Shown: piece by piece, positions 2,526 through 30,605 of the stretch
Layout of the letters: the number at the start of each line of letters is the position of its first letter
Numbering within the stretch: the stretch's first letter is position 1
From: Methanocaldococcus jannaschii DSM 2661
GTDB lineage: Archaea > AGJL01 > Methanococci > Methanococcales > Methanocaldococcaceae
Direction: 5' to 3'
Assembly: GCF_000091665.1 (NCBI RefSeq)
Contig: NC_000909.1
Location: 30,001-62,000, forward strand
DNA: 32,000 nt
Position numbers and translations under genes: made by a program
The notes under the pieces: generated by a model
The model's input: the letters and a program-made list of their open reading frames with translations, nothing else
What the model was told of the DNA's origin: nothing
Database searches by the model: none

Positions 2526-3374
2526 ATGAATCCTTTTGGTAGCTATAAAAAAGTTGTCTCAGCAAGGAGTACATTAAAAGAAGTTTTAAAGAAGGCTCAG
2601 GATGGGGGAATCGTTTCAACAGCTTTTATTTATGGATTAGAAAATAATTTATTAGATGGAGTTATAGTTGCAGACAACGCTGGGGAGTTTAAGGCAGTTC
2701 CTAAAGTAGCTACAACACCAGAAGAAGTTTTAGAGGCAGCTGGAACAAAATATACAGTCTGCCCAAACATTTCAGTATTAAAGAGTGCTGTTAGAGAATA
2801 TGGCTGTGAAAAAATTGGAGTTGTTGGAACACCTTGCCAAGTTAGAGCTGTAAGAAAGTTGATGAAATATCCAGTAGGATTTAGACACGTTCCAGATAAG
2901 ATTGCTTTAATAATCGGAATCTTCTGTATGGAGAACTTCCCATACTACGGATTGAAGTTGATTGTTGAAGAACACTGTGGAGTTAAGATGGAGGATGTCG
3001 TCAAGATGGATATTGGAAAGGGTAAGTTCTGGGTCTATACAAGATGGGGAGAGACAAAAGCGATTAAATTAAAAGAAACTCATCCTTATGAACAAATCGC
3101 TTGCCATGTTTGTACAGATTATACCGCAGAGTTGGCAGATATTTCAACAGGTTCAGTTGGAAGCCCAGACGGATGGAGCACTGTATTTATAAGAACTGCT
3201 AAGGGAGAAGAAATATTTAACAAAATGGTTGAAGATGGGTATTTAGAAGTTAAACCAATAGAAGAAGTTAAACCAGGATTAGGATTAGTTGAGAAATTAG
3301 CACTGCAAAAGAAAGAGAAAAACATGAAAGAAATCGAACATAGAAAAGAGCTCGGACTACCTATTCCATACTAA
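2526..3374 (+). CDS. fruB: F420-reducing hydrogenase beta subunit (FrhB family, F420/FAD-binding)
   Basis: ATG 2526 lies 6-8 nt behind GAGGTGG; the track start TTG 2511 is less likely. FrhB-family motifs are present ([31 protein letters not shown]). It is the last gene of the fru cluster. Confidence 0.85.
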
Positions 3375-3439
3375 GAGGCACTGCCGAGCGTAGCGAGGCA
3401 GTGCATCCGTTTTGATGAACCTTTTACTAAAAGGTTCAT
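3375..3439 (+). repeat. GC-rich hairpin insert, modules A+B
   Basis: Hairpin A spans 3378-3404: gcactgcc-gagcgtagcga-ggcagtgc. Hairpin B spans 3415-3439: atgaacctttt-act-aaaaggttcat, a perfect 11-bp stem. The same modules recur at other sites in the window. Confidence 0.75.
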
Positions 3440-3490
3440 GTGAAGGAAATAGAGCATAGGAAAGAATTAGGATTACCAGTGCCTTATTAA
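3440..3490 (+). other. Displaced second copy of the last 16 codons plus stop of fruB (not in frame with fruB)
   Basis: 51 nt, 37/51 identical to 3324-3374. It translates to [16 protein letters not shown] versus [16 protein letters not shown]. An oligo-T run follows (3501-3530). Confidence 0.8.
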
Positions 3491-5248: not shown

Positions 5249-5329
5249 CTGAGGTATAAATGAACGCCTTCCGAAGGAAGGGCGTTCAAACCTTCCTTAG
5301 TAAATTTTTATTAATTTTGAAAGACACTA
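5221..5329 (+). repeat. Extended hairpin spanning the tfrA stop codon: 15-bp perfect inverted repeat enclosing a GC-rich hairpin
   Basis: tagtgtctttcaaaa (5221-5235) is the reverse complement of ttttgaaagacacta (5315-5329). The central hairpin is tgaacgccttcc-gaa-ggaagggcgttca (5261-5288, one bulged nt). Confidence 0.6.
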
Positions 5330-5369: not shown

Positions 5370-5430
5370 TTGGCTCAGCTGCGGGAGTAGTCATCACAGA
5401 ATCAGATAGCGAAATTGTCATCATCGCCAA
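5370..5430 (-). ncRNA. C/D box sRNA (2'-O-methylation guide)
   Basis: The minus strand reads uuggc-g-AUGAUGA(C)-caauuucgcuau-CUGA(D')-uucu-GUGAUGA(C')-cuacucccgcag-CUGA(D)-gccaa. Both guides are exactly 12 nt, and a 5-bp terminal stem uuggc/gccaa closes the RNA. It starts 7 nt after the sufBD stop. Confidence 0.85.
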
Positions 5431-6411: not shown

Positions 6412-6450
6412 TTATTCCCTCTCCTCTGGGACTTTTTTGTAGCATTTTCC
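6412..6450 (-). other. Displaced second copy of the sufC 3' end (12 codons plus stop)
   Basis: The minus strand reads gga aaa tgc tac aaa aaa gtc cca gag gag agg gaa taa = GKCYKKVPEERE*. The real tail is GKCYKKVPDGK* (6564-6529). Confidence 0.75.
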
Positions 6451-6528
6451 TCAGCATAGGAGAAACTCCTATTGCGATACCTATAACACCTCCTCGCTTC
6501 GCTCGGAGGTGTAAATTATTTTGTAGGA
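6451..6528 (-). repeat. GC-rich hairpin insert, modules A+C (minus orientation)
   Basis: Hairpin A spans 6486-6512; the minus strand reads acacctcc-gagcgaagcga-ggaggtgt. Hairpin C spans 6454-6475; the minus strand reads gcaataggag-ttt-ctcctatgc. Confidence 0.75.
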
Positions 6529-7269
6529 CTATTTTCCATCTGGCACTTTCTTATAGCATTTTCCACACTCTTTTTTATAAAACTCTCCAACTTCCTTTGG
6601 GTCTCCACTCTTTATAACCTCTCCAGCACAGATTAAAGAGACTCTATCGGCATGTTCAGCTAACTCCTCTCTGTGTGTAATAACTAATAAAGAACATCCT
6701 TTATCCTTTAAATAGTCAAAAACTCTCTTAATCTCATCAAATGATACAATATCTATCCCACTATCTGGCTCATCTAAGATAGCCAAATCCGGCTCCATAC
6801 AGATAATTGAAGCTAACTCTATCCTCTTTCGCTCTCCTCCACTTAGTGTTTCATCCACATATCTATCTAAATATTTGTCTGGGTCTAAATTTACCAATTT
6901 TAAAGCTTCCCTAATTTTTTCCTCTGCTATTTCTTTATCTTTCTTATACTTTTCATTCATTCCAAGCATTAAGTAGTTTTTAACTTTAATCCCCTCAAAT
7001 CTTGCAGGTTCCTGCCAAGCTAAAGTCATTCCCATCCTCGCCCTTTCAGTAATATTTTTATCAATTATATCAACACCTTTAAATATAATCCTTCCCTTAG
7101 TTGGTTTATATCCGGAAATTCCCATTATTGTATAAGCTAAGGTTGATTTTCCCGCTCCATTCGGCCCTATAATTGCATGAATCTCATTTTCCTCTACAGT
7201 TAAATTTACACCTTTTAAAATCTCTCTGTTCCCTCTATAAACATGTAAATCCTCTACTTTTAATAACAT
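6529..7269 (-). CDS. sufC: FeS assembly ATPase SufC (ABC ATPase)
   Basis: Walker A GPNGAGKST, signature LSGGERKR, Walker B LAILDEPDSGID. The ATG at 7269 (MLLKVEDL) lies 5 nt behind GGTGA. The track start at 7281 is a GTG inside that SD. Confidence 0.9.
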   Translation of the reverse strand: MLLKVEDLHVYRGNREILKGVNLTVEENEIHAIIGPNGAGKSTLAYTIMGISGYKPTKGRIIFKGVDIIDKNITERARMGMTLAWQEPARFEGIKVKNYLMLGMNEKYKKDKEIAEEKIREALKLVNLDPDKYLDRYVDETLSGGERKRIELASIICMEPDLAILDEPDSGIDIVSFDEIKRVFDYLKDKGCSLLVITHREELAEHADRVSLICAGEVIKSGDPKEVGEFYKKECGKCYKKVPDGK

Positions 7270-7406
7270 GATACTCACCAAAAATTATAAATAGGTCTTT
7301 TGTGAATGTTCATTAAAAGCGGATATATTTTTAATAGCTCATACAATAAAAAGATTACCATATCGATAAAATAAAAATAACAAAAACATGCCAGGTCTCT
7401 TCAGAC

Positions 7407-7504
7407 CCATAGGGAAACCCCTATTGAGATACCCGAGTGGGGCTTCACTACGTTCAGCCCCACTGTAGTCTAGTATCCCAATAGGGCGAAGCCCTATGGA
7501 AATA
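7407..7504 (-). repeat. GC-rich hairpin insert, modules C-A-C, flanked by 25-nt direct repeats
   Basis: Hairpin C spans 7407-7426 and hairpin A spans 7436-7464 (agtggggc...gccccact; the minus-strand core is ugaacguagugaa). A second hairpin C spans 7477-7499 (cccaataggg-cgaag-ccctatgg). Direct repeats at 7382-7406 and 7505-7529 are 23/25 identical. Confidence 0.75.
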
Positions 7505-7550
7505 AAAAACATGCCAGGTCTCTTTGGACTGGCGACCATCGGGTGATAGA

Positions 7551-8789: not shown

Positions 8790-9443
8790 CTATTCTTTTA
8801 GATAGAATGTCATATTATCCTCATTCAATATTATTCCTTTCTTCCATTTTACAAATAAGTAGTATTTATCTTTTTTGTCATCTGAAAGCTCTTTTTCAAT
8901 TCTTTTAGCTATAATTCTCACAGGATTTTTCCCAATTCTCTCTTCAAAGTCCTTAAAACTTTCAAATTTTTTTGCTTCTCTCTCTTCAATAATTTTCCAC
9001 ATATATTTCTTTTTAATTTCTGGAAGTAATTCTAAGGTATGTAATCTTGTGGTTATTGGTGGGCATTCATTAAAGAATCTCACAAACCTATCCTCCTGTA
9101 TTTTAACGGCTTCCATTACTACATATAAAAGTTCTGATTTAGCTGTTGGAGTTAGTTGTTCATATTTAATCATTCTTCTAACGTGGTCTATTTTATCTCT
9201 CTTACCTTTTCCAATATAGACTCTTTCACCTAATTCAATATCTACATTTGGTTTTGGAATCATCTCCATTAATAAAAACTGATATTCTCCAAGCCCTTGA
9301 ACTATAGGTTCATCAGGTTTGTCGGGATAACCGTAAGGTAAATAATCCAAAACCCATGCGTAGTTTTCAAATTTTTGTGGCTTATTTTTTTTAGGAAATC
9401 TCATTCTTTCATCGTTTCCTTTTTTATATTGCCCTCTAACCAT
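8790..9443 (-). CDS. Conserved archaeal putative nucleic-acid-binding protein (DUF655/COG1491-like)
   Basis: SD GGGTGA precedes the ATG. I recall this family as the usual neighbour of rpoF and rpl21e in archaea. The assignment is by sequence recall only. Confidence 0.55.
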   Translation of the reverse strand: MVRGQYKKGNDERMRFPKKNKPQKFENYAWVLDYLPYGYPDKPDEPIVQGLGEYQFLLMEMIPKPNVDIELGERVYIGKGKRDKIDHVRRMIKYEQLTPTAKSELLYVVMEAVKIQEDRFVRFFNECPPITTRLHTLELLPEIKKKYMWKIIEEREAKKFESFKDFEERIGKNPVRIIAKRIEKELSDDKKDKYYLFVKWKKGIILNEDNMTFYLKE

Positions 9444-9476
9444 AAAATTTCACCCTTCATTTAAATCTACGAATAT

Positions 9477-9611
9477 ATCGGAGCAATAAACACCCTGGAC
9501 TTAATTTACACCTCCGAGCGTAGCGAGGAGGTGTTAGGTTTTGATGAAACCGAAGCATTAGCTTCGGGCTATGAAAACTCGGAGAGTTTTCATTTAACTT
9601 TTTCTAAAAGT
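9477..9611 (+). repeat. Composite GC-rich hairpin insert (module A, two extra perfect hairpins, degenerate module B), flanked by 21-nt direct repeats
   Basis: Hairpin A spans 9508-9534 (acacctcc-gagcgtagcga-ggaggtgt). Further hairpins are ccgaagc-atta-gcttcgg (9550-9567), atgaaaactc-gga-gagttttcat (9571-9593) and aactttt-tct-aaaagtt (9596-9612). Direct repeats at 9456-9476 and 9612-9632 are 18/21 identical. Confidence 0.7.
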
Positions 9612-9650
9612 TTCATTTAAATTTACAAATTTAAAGGAGTAATAAAAAAA

Positions 9651-9974
9651 TTAAATATATTTCCTAACGATTTCTAAGATTTCCTCAGCATTTTCTGGCA
9701 ATTCTCTTTTGTAATATATTGCTCTCAAATCATCTAAATCTTCAGGTAATATATCAGCTATTTTAACTGCTGTTTTTTCATCTATTCCTAAAGATATTAA
9801 CTCTTCAACCAATTTTTTTGCCTCTTCTTTATCTAATTTGGCAAACTTTTGTAAATAATCTAAAGCACATCCCTGTTCGTAAGATAACTCTCCAATTTGG
9901 GCTCTATTATACATAATTTCAGCAGCCTCTGATACTGTTACATACCTCTCTCCAAGGATTTTTTTGCCTATCAT
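9651..9974 (-). CDS. rpoF: DNA-directed RNA polymerase subunit Rpo4 (RpoF, Rpb4 family)
   Basis: Rpb4/RpoF-like sequence (VTVSEAAEIM...LSYEQGCALDYLQKFAKL...AVKIADILPED). The ATG at 9974 (MIGKK) lies behind AGGGAGAG. The track start at 9998 is a TTG. Confidence 0.8.
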   Translation of the reverse strand: MIGKKILGERYVTVSEAAEIMYNRAQIGELSYEQGCALDYLQKFAKLDKEEAKKLVEELISLGIDEKTAVKIADILPEDLDDLRAIYYKRELPENAEEILEIVRKYI

Positions 9975-18656: not shown

Positions 18657-18795
18657 GATACCACCATTTTTATTCAATTTTTAATTTCTGTTATTTTTGC
18701 TATTAAATACTTTTTATAAAATATTAATTGTTATATTCAAATATATTGATAAAGATAAAAACAAAATAACAATAAGCTGATTTTAATTAAAACAG

Positions 18796-19115
18796 AATCC
18801 CATTCCGAAACGGTCTGATTTTAATTATCTTATAAATTAAAAGCATTGAAATATAATACTCATCCGTTTCCATCCTCTATCCATTCTCTAAGAGGTCTGA
18901 TTTTAATCTTCAGTAAATACTGTTTTAATGCCTTCAATCTTATCTATTTCCATCCTCCAAGAGGTCTGATTTTAACAATTATTTGGGAAAAGGGAAAAGT
19001 ATCAATAACAGATAAATTTCCATTCCGAAACGGTCTGATTTTAACTAACGCCAAAAACCTCCATTACCCCCAGCATAACAACTGGATTTCCATTCCGAAA
19101 CGGTCTGATTTTAAC
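18796..19115 (-). CRISPR. CRISPR array with 5 repeats and 4 spacers (40, 38, 39 and 40 nt); transcribed strand inferred as minus
   Basis: Repeats lie at 19086-19115 and 19016-19045 (minus strand GTTAAAATCAGACCGTTTCGGAATGGAAAT). The repeat at 18946-18976 is a variant, GTTAAAATCAGACCTCTTGGAGGATGGAAAT. The repeat at 18866-18907 is that variant with an 11-nt internal duplication. The repeat at 18796-18825 is degenerate. Degeneration increases away from the AT-rich 400-bp non-coding block at 19116-19515. Confidence 0.9.
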
Positions 19116-29466: not shown

Positions 29467-30225
29467 GTGATTGGTATAATAGGAGGGACAGGAATAGCTG
29501 AAATATTAAAAGGAGACAAAGAAGAGATTATAAATACAAAATATGGGAAAGCAAGAGTTATAATTGATAAAGAAAACGAAGTAGTTTTGTTATTTAGGCA
29601 TGGAGTAAGACATAACATCCCACCACATAAAATAAACTATAGGGCTAACATCTACGCTTTAAAAAAGTTGGGAGTTGAAAGAATATTGGCTATAAATTCA
29701 GTTGGTTCATTAAAAGAAGATTTAAAGCCTGGAATGTTTTTTGTTCCAAATGATTTTATAGAATTTACAAAGAAGAGAGAAGAGACGTTTTACGATGAAG
29801 GAAAAGTTGTTCATATAGATATGACAGACCCTTACTGTCCAGAGTTGAGAAATATTTTAAAATCAATATTAGATAAAAATAACTTCTCTTATGGAGAAGG
29901 CGTTTATGTTTGCACTGAAGGACCGAGATTTGAAACAAAAAAAGAGATAGCCATATACAAAAACTGGGGGGATGTTGTAGGAATGACTGGATATCCTGAA
30001 GTTGTTTTAGCAAGGGAGTTGGAGATGTGCTATGTCTCTCTATGCAACATAACAAACTATGCCTGTGGAATATCAAAAAATATTTTAACAGTTGATGAAG
30101 TTTTGGAAAAAATAAAAGAGATGGAAAATAAAATTTTGAAAGTTGTTGAGGACTTTATAAATTATGGCTTTGGAGAGAGAAAGTGTATCTGCAAAGATGC
30201 TTTGAAACATGCTGTTATTGGGTAA
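29467..30225 (+). CDS. mtnP: 5'-methylthioadenosine / purine nucleoside phosphorylase (PNP family 2)
   Basis: The GTG start lies behind GGTGAT. Motifs are IGIIGGTG, FRHG..H, EGPRFET and GMT. Confidence 0.85.
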   Translation: MIGIIGGTGIAEILKGDKEEIINTKYGKARVIIDKENEVVLLFRHGVRHNIPPHKINYRANIYALKKLGVERILAINSVGSLKEDLKPGMFFVPNDFIEFTKKREETFYDEGKVVHIDMTDPYCPELRNILKSILDKNNFSYGEGVYVCTEGPRFETKKEIAIYKNWGDVVGMTGYPEVVLARELEMCYVSLCNITNYACGISKNILTVDEVLEKIKEMENKILKVVEDFINYGFGERKCICKDALKHAVIG

Positions 30226-30251
30226 ATTATAAAACTAAAATCCTTTAATTT

Positions 30252-30309
30252 ACACCTCCGAGCGTAAGCGAGGAGGTGTTGGGGTATCCCAATAGGGTTT
30301 CCCTATGGG
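30252..30309 (+). repeat. GC-rich hairpin insert, modules A+C
   Basis: Hairpin A spans 30252-30279 (acacctcc-gagcgtaagcga-ggaggtgt). Hairpin C spans 30288-30309 (cccaataggg-ttt-ccctatggg). Confidence 0.75.
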
Positions 30310-30335
30310 CTTTAAAACATGCTATTATTGGATAA
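30309..30335 (+). other. Displaced second copy of the last 8 codons plus stop of mtnP
   Basis: gct tta aaa cat gct att att gga taa compares with gct ttg aaa cat gct gtt att ggg taa at 30199-30225 (24/27 identical). The peptides are ALKHAIIG* and ALKHAVIG*. Confidence 0.75.
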
Positions 30336-30362
30336 GCTATTATTTTTATTTTAGGTGAGATA

Positions 30363-30605
30363 ATGTTATCTAAAATTTTAGGTATATTTAAAGGCAAAGA
30401 AAAAATTGAAGAGAAATCAAATAAAATAATTGAGATTGATTATAACAAATGTAAAAACTGTTTATCATGTTATAGAGTCTGTAAAAATAACGTTTTTGCT
30501 ATAAAAAACAATAGAGTTGTTGTTAAAAATGAAAATAACTGCACAAAGTGTGGGGAGTGTTTAAAAGTTTGTAGGTATGGAGCAATAATACTTTATGATG
30601 CTTAA
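30363..30605 (+). CDS. Small 2x[4Fe-4S]-type ferredoxin-like protein
   Basis: Two cysteine motifs, CKNCLSCYRVC and CTKCGECLKVC. SD GGTGAG precedes the ATG. Confidence 0.8.
   Translation: MLSKILGIFKGKEKIEEKSNKIIEIDYNKCKNCLSCYRVCKNNVFAIKNNRVVVKNENNCTKCGECLKVCRYGAIILYDA

Follow-up and report, generated by a model that had tools for sequence, protein, structure and literature searches.

How can the end of a gene stand twice within a short stretch of DNA, with apparently only the first copy in use, and the two copies differ mainly at silent positions, as if both were coding? The question is raised by mtnP, the gene of S-methyl-5'-thioadenosine phosphorylase, in a stretch of 32,000 nucleotides from the archaeon Methanocaldococcus jannaschii DSM 2661 (contig NC_000909.1, positions 30,001 to 62,000; 32% GC), referred to here, in its whole length, as the window. 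The end of mtnP is repeated there 110 nt downstream, on the far side of an 83-nt insert, and the same pattern recurs at two other genes, fruB and sufC. The explanation that we consider probable is that the 110-nt unit at mtnP is one insertion of a Methanocaldococcus hairpin repeat between two copies of its target, and that the copies at fruB and sufC are natural alleles joined by recombination. Selection on both copies would not be needed for the silent-site pattern.

Copy 1 of the mtnP end (gct ttg aaa cat gct gtt att ggg taa) supplies the last eight codons and the stop of the working gene. The protein end that it encodes, ALKHAVIG, is shared with most close relatives, and the protein itself clusters with the M. 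jannaschii MtnP record WP_010869552. Copy 2 (gct tta aaa cat gct att att gga taa) would read ALKHAIIG. The copies are identical at 24 of 27 positions; two of the three differences are silent third-position changes and the remaining one is a first-position change that exchanges valine for isoleucine, with G in copy 1 and A in copy 2 throughout. Coordinates, letters, spacing and differences had been given by an earlier reading of the letters (the sequence-only reading), and re-reading of the sequence bore them out, together with an oligo-T stretch after copy 2, which is accompanied by the GGTGAG ribosome-binding site of the next gene. Repeats with at least 24 of 27 matches at a spacing of 50-300 nt form eight clusters in the window, against none in 100 Markov-1 simulations.

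With copy 1, mtnP is complete up to its stop codon; copy 2 gives the ferredoxin gene, which starts at 30363, its native 5' context back. From 30309 on, the window is collinear with the sequence that follows directly on the single mtnP end in the relatives FS406-22, L126 and M. lauensis; in relatives with an empty site the distance from the mtnP stop to the ferredoxin start is 13-23 nt. Copy 2 lies at an offset of +110 nt at mtnP and +116 nt at fruB, and therefore in another frame than copy 1, while copy 2 of sufC is in frame but stops intervene. In each of the three genes, stops that lie in the insert close the frame of copy 2, and sufC copy 2 itself opens with an in-frame TGA. We infer that copy 2 is an untranslated leftover, and the coding selection on both copies that the sequence-only reading had implied is not supported by these frames. 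Gain and loss of the 110-nt unit within the population, which the same reading had also implied, is not supported either. Among eight public contigs encoding an identical MtnP, no empty allele of the M. jannaschii type was found: all eight match the window base for base, five of them reach past the element and carry it, and the three short ones end inside its first hairpin.

Hairpin elements and their target duplications

The insert at mtnP folds into two GC-rich hairpins, A and B (DNA fold of -15.8 kcal/mol, z = -4.65). These hairpin modules are found at five places in the window: at mtnP, at sufC, at fruB (in a variant form), and in the intergenic regions upstream of the uS15 gene and downstream of rpoF (Table 1). 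The recurrence of the duplicated layout at fruB and sufC had been pointed out from the letters and was confirmed; the two intergenic sites are additional to it. The core pattern of hairpin A has four matches in the 32 kb, where none is expected. In the fruB variant the loop core CGAGCG-TA-GCGAG is kept and the stem differs by three fully compensated pairs, which argues that the hairpin itself is what is conserved; across the variants the loop core has the constant form CGAGCG-N2-3-GCGAG. The inserts of mtnP, M. jannaschii sufC and M. vulcanius sufC can be aligned from TAAT[TC]TACACC to CCTATG[GC], which gives a core of about 61-63 nt. The elements of this mtnP/sufC type run from TAATTTACACC to CCCTATGG, and their ends are not inverted copies of each other, so that terminal inverted repeats are lacking; only the element upstream of uS15 has inverted ends, of the hairpin B type.

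Statements about duplication in the family as a whole rest on the five elements of the window and on related loci. Each of the five elements in the window has direct repeats on both sides that are peculiar to its site. Their length is 27 nt for mtnP, 29-53 nt for sufC, 50 nt for fruB, 25-30 nt for the element upstream of uS15 and 35 nt for that downstream of rpoF, and over all the sites examined it varies from 25 to 57 nt. The flank-to-flank alignment scores of the five elements lie 8 to 14 standard deviations above those of shuffled flanks, and those of two unrelated GC-rich hairpins of the window are at background. Orthologous empty sites confirm the target duplication for all five insertions. 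A single copy of the mtnP target is present in FS406-22, L126, L122, sp. 28A, M. lauensis and L220, and a single copy of the fruB and sufC targets in FS406-22, M. fervens and M. bathoardescens. Of the two intergenic insertions, the one upstream of uS15 is also present in M. bathoardescens and is absent from FS406-22 and M. fervens, and that downstream of rpoF is shared with FS406-22, M. bathoardescens being without it. At fruB, the downstream flank of copy 2 is orthologous to the flank that follows the single copy in the relatives. This geometry is that of a standard insertion with target duplication, but the duplication is unusually long and variable in length. The non-coding duplications at rpoF and uS15 diverge freely.

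The occupied sites are distributed patchily and out of step with the species relationships. The fruB site is occupied in M. jannaschii and in the metagenome contig L141, with the same left end at the same site. A related multi-hairpin element stands at the same fruB position in a contig of Methanothermococcus (L146; protein P0153, sp. Ax23 cluster); the duplication there comprises 51-57 nt, with three coding differences, all at third positions, and its boundaries agree within 1-2 nt with those of M. jannaschii. When about 20 related loci were scanned for further duplications of gene ends, only this Methanothermococcus fruB and the shared rpoF element were found.

Some sequence features recur at the junctions. 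Counted from the hairpin B end, the duplications at mtnP and uS15 have the motif AAACATGC at 6-7 nt, that is, at two of the three hairpin B junctions and in both copies (30205-30212, 30315-30322, 7384-7391 and 7507-7514), with three independent sites in the whole window. The sufC junction has AAAATGC at 5 nt, and the left boundary at fruB has AAACATGA. AAACATGC, noticed post hoc, may mark the targets of insertion. Between the mtnP stop and the element core there is also a 20-nt AT-rich stretch. In M. vulcanius sufC, the stretch at the corresponding place after the stop falls inside the duplication, and by analogy the mtnP stretch may be what is left of the non-coding part of the upstream target copy.

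Several observations concern the hairpins as such. Of the two arms of hairpin A, CACCTCC coincides with the anti-Shine-Dalgarno end of 16S rRNA and GGAGGTG with a perfect Shine-Dalgarno sequence (30252-30279, 6486-6512 and 9508-9534); this likeness is maybe a coincidence, since the fruB variant lacks a Shine-Dalgarno-like stem. The loop core GCGAAGC or GCGTAGC belongs to a known type of extremely stable DNA mini-hairpin. A conserved motif, TTTTGATGAA(A)C, which is similar to box C (UGAUGA), comes after hairpin A in the rpoF/fruB subtype in several lineages (9535-9550 and 3404-3420 in the window; near 16605 in L136; near 3925 in L141). Orthologous elements at one site can differ by whole hairpin modules, with hairpins swapped or extra ones nested, as seen between M. 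jannaschii and FS406-22 for the rpoF element (window 9430-9675 versus L136 16497-16741) and between M. jannaschii and L141 for the fruB element (window 3375-3440 versus L141 3893-4110); modules may therefore be exchanged or inserted independently. The short-read assemblies of M. jannaschii L133-L135 (Logan; more than 20 sequencing runs) break in hairpin A at 30272-30274. Assemblies are thus fragmented by the repeat family, and the elements would consequently be under-represented at the ends of metagenome contigs. Rfam covariance models gave no match to the elements at the gathering threshold, and the only match with E<=1 was YenS, a 16-bit chance hit. The hairpin A pattern was not found in viral contigs, nor was any copy of the element found in plasmids.

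Table 1. Coordinates within the window of the mtnP locus and of the other hairpin insertions
Feature	Position	Strand	Remarks
fruB/frhB copy 1	3325..3374	+	haplotype A
fruB hairpin element	3375..3440	+	hairpin A variant GCACTGCC-GAGCGTAGCGAG-GGCAGTGC and terminal hairpin AACCTTTTACTAAAAGGTT
fruB copy 2	3441..3490	+	haplotype B
sufC copy 2	6412..6453	-	stop, GKCYKKVPEERE, stop; FS406-22-type tail
sufC hairpin element	6454..6514	-	shares its subtype with the mtnP element
sufC copy 1	6515..6567	-	coding 6567-6529 (CGKCYKKVPDGK and stop), 14-nt non-coding tail 6528-6515
uS15-upstream intergenic element	7382..7529		repeats 7382-7406 and 7505-7529 around 7407-7504; hairpin B-type inverted ends
rpoF-downstream intergenic element	9456..9646		repeats 9456-9490 and 9612-9646 around 9491-9611
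mtnP coding sequence (S-methyl-5'-thioadenosine phosphorylase, MJ0060-type)	29467..30225	+	open reading frame; TIGR01694 MTAP, 6.2e-85, above curated cut-off
mtnP copy 1	30199..30225	+	final 8 codons and TAA of the working gene
AT-rich stretch, mtnP stop to element core	30226..30245	+	20 nt
mtnP element core	30246..30308	+	TAATTT, hairpin A, linker, hairpin B
Hairpin A	30252-30279	+	ACACCTCC-GAGCGTAAGCGAG-GGAGGTGT
Hairpin B	30290-30308	+	CAATAGGG-TTT-CCCTATGG
mtnP copy 2	30309..30335	+	out of mtnP frame
Native mtnP-ferredoxin spacer	30336..30362	+	after copy 2; oligo-T/AT tract and GGTGAG ribosome-binding site

Codon positions and haplotypes of the copies

The differences between the copies fall mostly on third codon positions. 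Counted by first, second and third position, they are 3/0/10 at fruB (48 nt compared), 0/0/4 at sufC (29 nt) and 1/0/2 at mtnP (27 nt), which makes 20 differences for the three genes, four at first, none at second and 16 at third positions (P for at least 16 third-position differences of 20 = 2.5e-5). The bias reported by the sequence-only reading is real, then, although its count of 21 with five first-position differences has to be lowered by one in each case. To judge whether such a pattern could arise by decay, identical copies were allowed to diverge in a simulation, copy 1 by synonymous changes only and copy 2 by free drift, until the observed number of differences was reached. The simulated pairs had on average 5.6 second-position differences and 11 amino-acid-changing codons, compared with 0 and 3 observed; the probability of no second-position difference was 2e-4 and that of three or fewer amino-acid-changing codons was below 2e-4. 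A recent identical duplication with random later changes, the scenario that the sequence-only reading had set against its own, is therefore rejected for the pooled data.

The pattern at fruB can be traced to other lineages. When the working fruB ends of 13 other lineages were compared, copy 2 proved to be identical at 46 of 48 positions (96%) to the single working end of L150, and at 44 of 48 to that of L140. Copy 1 agrees with these two at only 35 of 48 positions, but at 42 of 48 with M. fervens, L141 and L143. The two copies are 73% identical to each other, and at nearly every site where they differ, each of the two states is present in the working genes of some lineage. Silent polymorphism is abundant in this gene, since the lineages diverge by 10-13% over the whole gene while their proteins are 96-99% identical. 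Just upstream of copy 1, M. jannaschii fruB is closest to L140: the adjoining 152 nt show 10 differences from it, whereas copy 1 shows 13 in 48 nt (Fisher p = 0.0004) and copy 2 shows 4 in 48, a divergence that fits the upstream level. The difference between the fruB copies predates the duplication, because the copies match the working ends of different lineages; judged from these alignments, the 27% is apparently pre-existing allelic divergence and not change accumulated since the duplication.

A second case is provided by sufC. M. vulcanius carries the same element subtype at the same position (58/61 identical), and its duplication comprises 53 nt (51/53 identical) and runs 14 nt past the stop (tgtgga...gga aaa taa acttttgtgaaata); both species have the same duplication boundaries. 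Copy 1 of M. jannaschii ends in PDGK with a diverged 14-nt tail and is of the vulcanius type (PEGK), while its copy 2 ends in PEERE, continues with aattaaaatccc... and is of the FS406-22 type (PEEKE, then aaatccc...). The two sides of the element thus differ in their affinity. The body of the M. jannaschii gene diverges by 19% from that of M. vulcanius and by 11% from those of FS406-22, M. fervens and M. bathoardescens, the latter three being without the element. It was also considered whether the DGK tail of sufC is supplied by the element; this was ruled out by the M. vulcanius locus and by the other SufC tails known (PEGK, PEEK, PEEKE), so that the tail is a natural allele together with its 3' untranslated region.

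The comparison with M. vulcanius also bears on the position of the stop codons. It had been claimed that the duplication ends exactly at the stop. The alignable similarity does end there, but the M. vulcanius sufC duplication continues for 14 nt. The similarity in M. jannaschii sufC fades near the stop because coding sequence stays alignable between diverged alleles and the 3' untranslated region does not. The boundary at the sufC stop codon is thus an artefact of conservation and not a trace of mechanism, and the boundary at mtnP presumably has the same cause.

At mtnP itself, the isoleucine of copy 2 is a natural state, since MtnP ends in HAIIG or HAIIE occur in working proteins of other lineages. 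The MtnP ends of L220 and M. lauensis have isoleucine, with a DNA haplotype that is not copy-2-like; for a further protein that ends in HAIIG (P0124), the look-up gave no record.

Proposed insertion and recombination, and their rivals

The sequence of events that we propose begins with a non-coding GC-rich hairpin element, which inserts with duplication of 25-57 nt of its target, depending on the site. Because the duplication keeps the gene end upstream and the start context downstream, the insertion would be nearly harmless even in a tightly packed genome, and the element may be selfish or neutral DNA that is tolerated since both its neighbors are preserved. Occupied alleles would then take part in homologous recombination between lineages, and exchange tracts would end at the element, because it is non-homologous. 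In such a situation copy 1 would go with the gene upstream and copy 2 with the flank downstream, and either could be overwritten from working alleles elsewhere by patch conversion. Alternatively, an occupied allele may have been acquired from another lineage, which would bring in a foreign copy 1 and leave the resident end as copy 2. Either route would suffice for both copies to look protein-coding without copy 2 being in use.

Several points weigh against this scenario or limit its reach. No transposase or other mobilizing enzyme turned up in the window or the related loci, and no genome-wide search for one was made. At sufC, the elements of M. vulcanius and M. jannaschii are 95% identical and the adjoining non-coding tail of copy 1 is far more diverged, so that the element may have been kept by selection or concerted evolution and not by recent transfer. 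The occupation of the same sites in distant lineages (sufC in M. vulcanius, fruB in Methanothermococcus) could be due to site-specific re-insertion; it could alternatively be due to common descent with recombination. At mtnP, none of the relatives examined carries a copy-2-like DNA haplotype or the same insertion, and with only three differences available the mixing of haplotypes is extrapolated to this gene from fruB and sufC. Three differences cannot decide among the readings, and mtnP fits equally well with ordinary drift of copy 2, by one G-to-A change at the V/I site, plus two silent changes.

This last point leads to the simplest alternative, in which the unit is a plain relic: the two copies were identical at first, copy 2 then decayed neutrally and copy 1 drifted at silent sites in the same lineage, and no recombination took place. 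Taken alone, mtnP agrees with it, for valine is the state at the V/I site in the closest relatives (FS406-22, L126, sp. 28A and L122), so that the isoleucine would be derived in copy 2; no amino acid is changed by the remaining two differences, and each of the three is a G/A transition. The duplications at M. vulcanius sufC and Methanothermococcus fruB are moreover nearly perfect, as for young insertions. The pooled data, however, reject it in both respects simulated, second positions and amino-acid-changing codons, and at fruB it is rejected because copy 2 agrees at 96% of its positions with a working allele of another lineage, the copies themselves differing by 27%. As a general account we regard it as quite improbable. 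A somewhat better, though still low, probability is given to a mobile unit that consists of the hairpins plus a copy of the gene end, moves between genomes and integrates by homology, through a single crossover of a small circle or through repair copied from an occupied allele, so that copy 1 is foreign and copy 2 is the displaced resident. Copy 1 of fruB and its element do look like a foreign patch, the gene body upstream and copy 2 being L140-like and copy 1 not. The duplication boundaries are the same in M. jannaschii and M. vulcanius at sufC and nearly so between M. jannaschii and the Methanothermococcus contig at fruB, and copy 1 has a complete C-terminus and stop codon every time. Such a unit cannot create new sites, yet there are five targets in 32 kb, two of them non-coding, and no integrase or endonuclease gene is found in the unit, whose 83-nt insert at mtnP holds no recombinase gene either, or next to it; nor does the evidence separate it from allelic recombination after a conventional insertion.

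The third alternative is that both copies are under coding selection in M. jannaschii, the unit being often and precisely excised and re-inserted so that copy 2 is regularly the real end of the gene. The strong third-position bias with almost no amino-acid change over three genes speaks for it, the occupied sites upstream of uS15 and downstream of rpoF are out of line with the species relationships, and direct repeats that flank a hairpin are generally known to favor deletion by slippage. Against this stand the eight contigs with identical MtnP, none of which shows an empty site, the TGA that opens sufC copy 2 in frame, and the fruB copies, which at 73% identity are too diverged for efficient homologous excision. 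The duplications at rpoF and uS15 are free to diverge, and the bias is otherwise explained by the near equality of copy 2 with working alleles of other lineages. We consider this alternative very unlikely. The combination of insertion with allelic recombination is retained as the probable explanation.

A number of more specific mechanisms were tried and rejected. An attachment site of the integrase type was ruled out: the insert, 83 nt long at mtnP, is closed by stops when read in the copy 2 frame at mtnP and fruB and, at sufC, in the one frame that both copies share. Programmed bypass, as in T4 gene 60 or the byp elements, was ruled out because MtnP is full length in comparison with its homologues and has its own TAA in copy 1; read-through of the stop codon was also considered and rejected on the features tested. 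A diversity-generating retroelement does not agree with the base changes, for A stands in copy 2 at all three mtnP differences but at only 4 of 13 at fruB, the sufC differences involve T/C and G/C, and no reverse transcriptase is found among the neighbors. Stray integration of a spacer of clustered regularly interspaced short palindromic repeats (CRISPR) would give a unique insert of about 35-40 nt, while the inserts here measure 63-121 nt and form a repeated family; the CRISPR repeats of the window (18796-19115) are unrelated to them.

Known systems, other features and significance

We take the elements of the window to be, almost certainly, members of the MJRE1-3 palindromic repeats of M. 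jannaschii, on the likeness of their description and not of an MJRE consensus sequence. These repeats, reportedly 141 copies in all, were published by Suyama, Lathe and Bork in 2005 (FEBS Lett 579:5281). The likeness extends to the organism and to short GC-rich hairpin repeats that are mostly intergenic and occasionally merged into coding sequence; at sufC, mtnP and fruB the working gene end (copy 1) stands directly against the element. The elements in the window are repeated (five related elements), palindromic, hairpin-forming and GC-rich relative to the genome, and their density of about one per 6 kb is roughly compatible with 141 copies. The MJRE paper is cited in passages of PMC2229807 and PMC2996958. 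In the literature searched, no description was found of long target duplications for these M. jannaschii elements, and beyond these duplications of 25-57 nt, the empty sites, the occurrence of elements in other Methanocaldococcus and in Methanothermococcus, and the chimeric alleles are seemingly undescribed there as well.

[quoted passage not shown] Typical MITEs have terminal inverted repeats and a fixed target duplication of 2-10 bp, which a known family of transposases determines; elements of the mtnP/sufC type lack such terminal repeats, and the duplications are both longer and variable. We know of no parent insertion sequence for the hairpin elements of the window. Long direct repeats of variable length, from tens to hundreds of bp, are produced by IS1634 and IS1549, IS4-related and transposase-coding sequences of 1.6-1.9 kb from Mycoplasma and Mycobacterium, which are the nearest precedent known to us; no homologue was seen here.

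With regard to the layout, integrative elements in the 3' ends of tRNA genes and homing-endonuclease genes with a duplicated C-terminal region (Allomyces atp6) show the same order of gene, replacement 3' end, element and displaced 3' end. In these systems, too, a foreign copy may stand upstream and the resident one downstream, and the copies differ in the way of orthologues. They differ from the present case in possessing an integrase or endonuclease gene; here the unit is of about 110 nt and its targets are many and partly non-coding. The GC clusters and byp elements of yeast mitochondria are similarly GC-rich mobile hairpins in an AT-rich genome, found between and within genes. The byp elements stand within reading frames, and ribosomes hop over them, whereas no such hop is needed at mtnP, because its frame is complete before the element.

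Other features of the window deserve a brief mention. The genes around the mtnP unit are those of P-II, ferredoxin and Sua5/YrdC. The fruA frame has an in-frame TGA (1008-1010), continues to a TAA at 1083-1085 and is followed directly by a GC-rich hairpin (about 1086-1125, gcctcgaggggaacccgaaagggacccgagaggc) that M. bathoardescens and contig L141 have also kept. The TGA has the look of the FruA selenocysteine codon, and the hairpin that of its selenocysteine insertion sequence (SECIS) element in the 3' untranslated region. A perfect GC-rich hairpin at 5261-5288 is without flanking repeats. The C/D-box small RNA sR39 (Rfam RF01122, 73.7 bits) lies at 5373-5428 on the minus strand, between a TfrA-like gene and sufB. 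In the same interval M. bathoardescens has an extra gene with an HNH domain, absent in M. jannaschii, besides an intein-containing MJ0043-like gene elsewhere (L138 19827-20849 and 12693-13493), and M. fervens has an inserted P-type ATPase. A mini CRISPR cluster at 18785-19115 comprises two repeat types in opposite orientations, RF01326 on the minus strand (18796-18825, 19016-19045 and 19086-19115) and RF01358 on the plus strand (18946), with no adjacent cas genes.

Taken further, the hairpin units might be an uncharacterised kind of archaeal mobile DNA with a long, measured stagger of about 30 or about 50-57 nt and perhaps AAACATGC as target motif, which passes in the form of occupied alleles from species to species and even between the genera Methanocaldococcus and Methanothermococcus, gene ends being replaced in a homology-directed way; this would be a kind of homing for which the element encodes no enzyme. 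We put this forward tentatively, as a view with perhaps one chance in its favor for several against. Repeats that differ only at silent sites, it should be cautioned, are no proof that both of them function. The arrangement described here shows how a very compact genome of a hyperthermophile tolerates selfish hairpin repeats. It also records clearly, on a small scale, how lineages of Methanocaldococcus have recombined, the alleles being different on the two sides of a 63-nt heterology, and the insertion mechanism behind the duplications of 25-57 nt could lead to a new archaeal transposition or repair activity.

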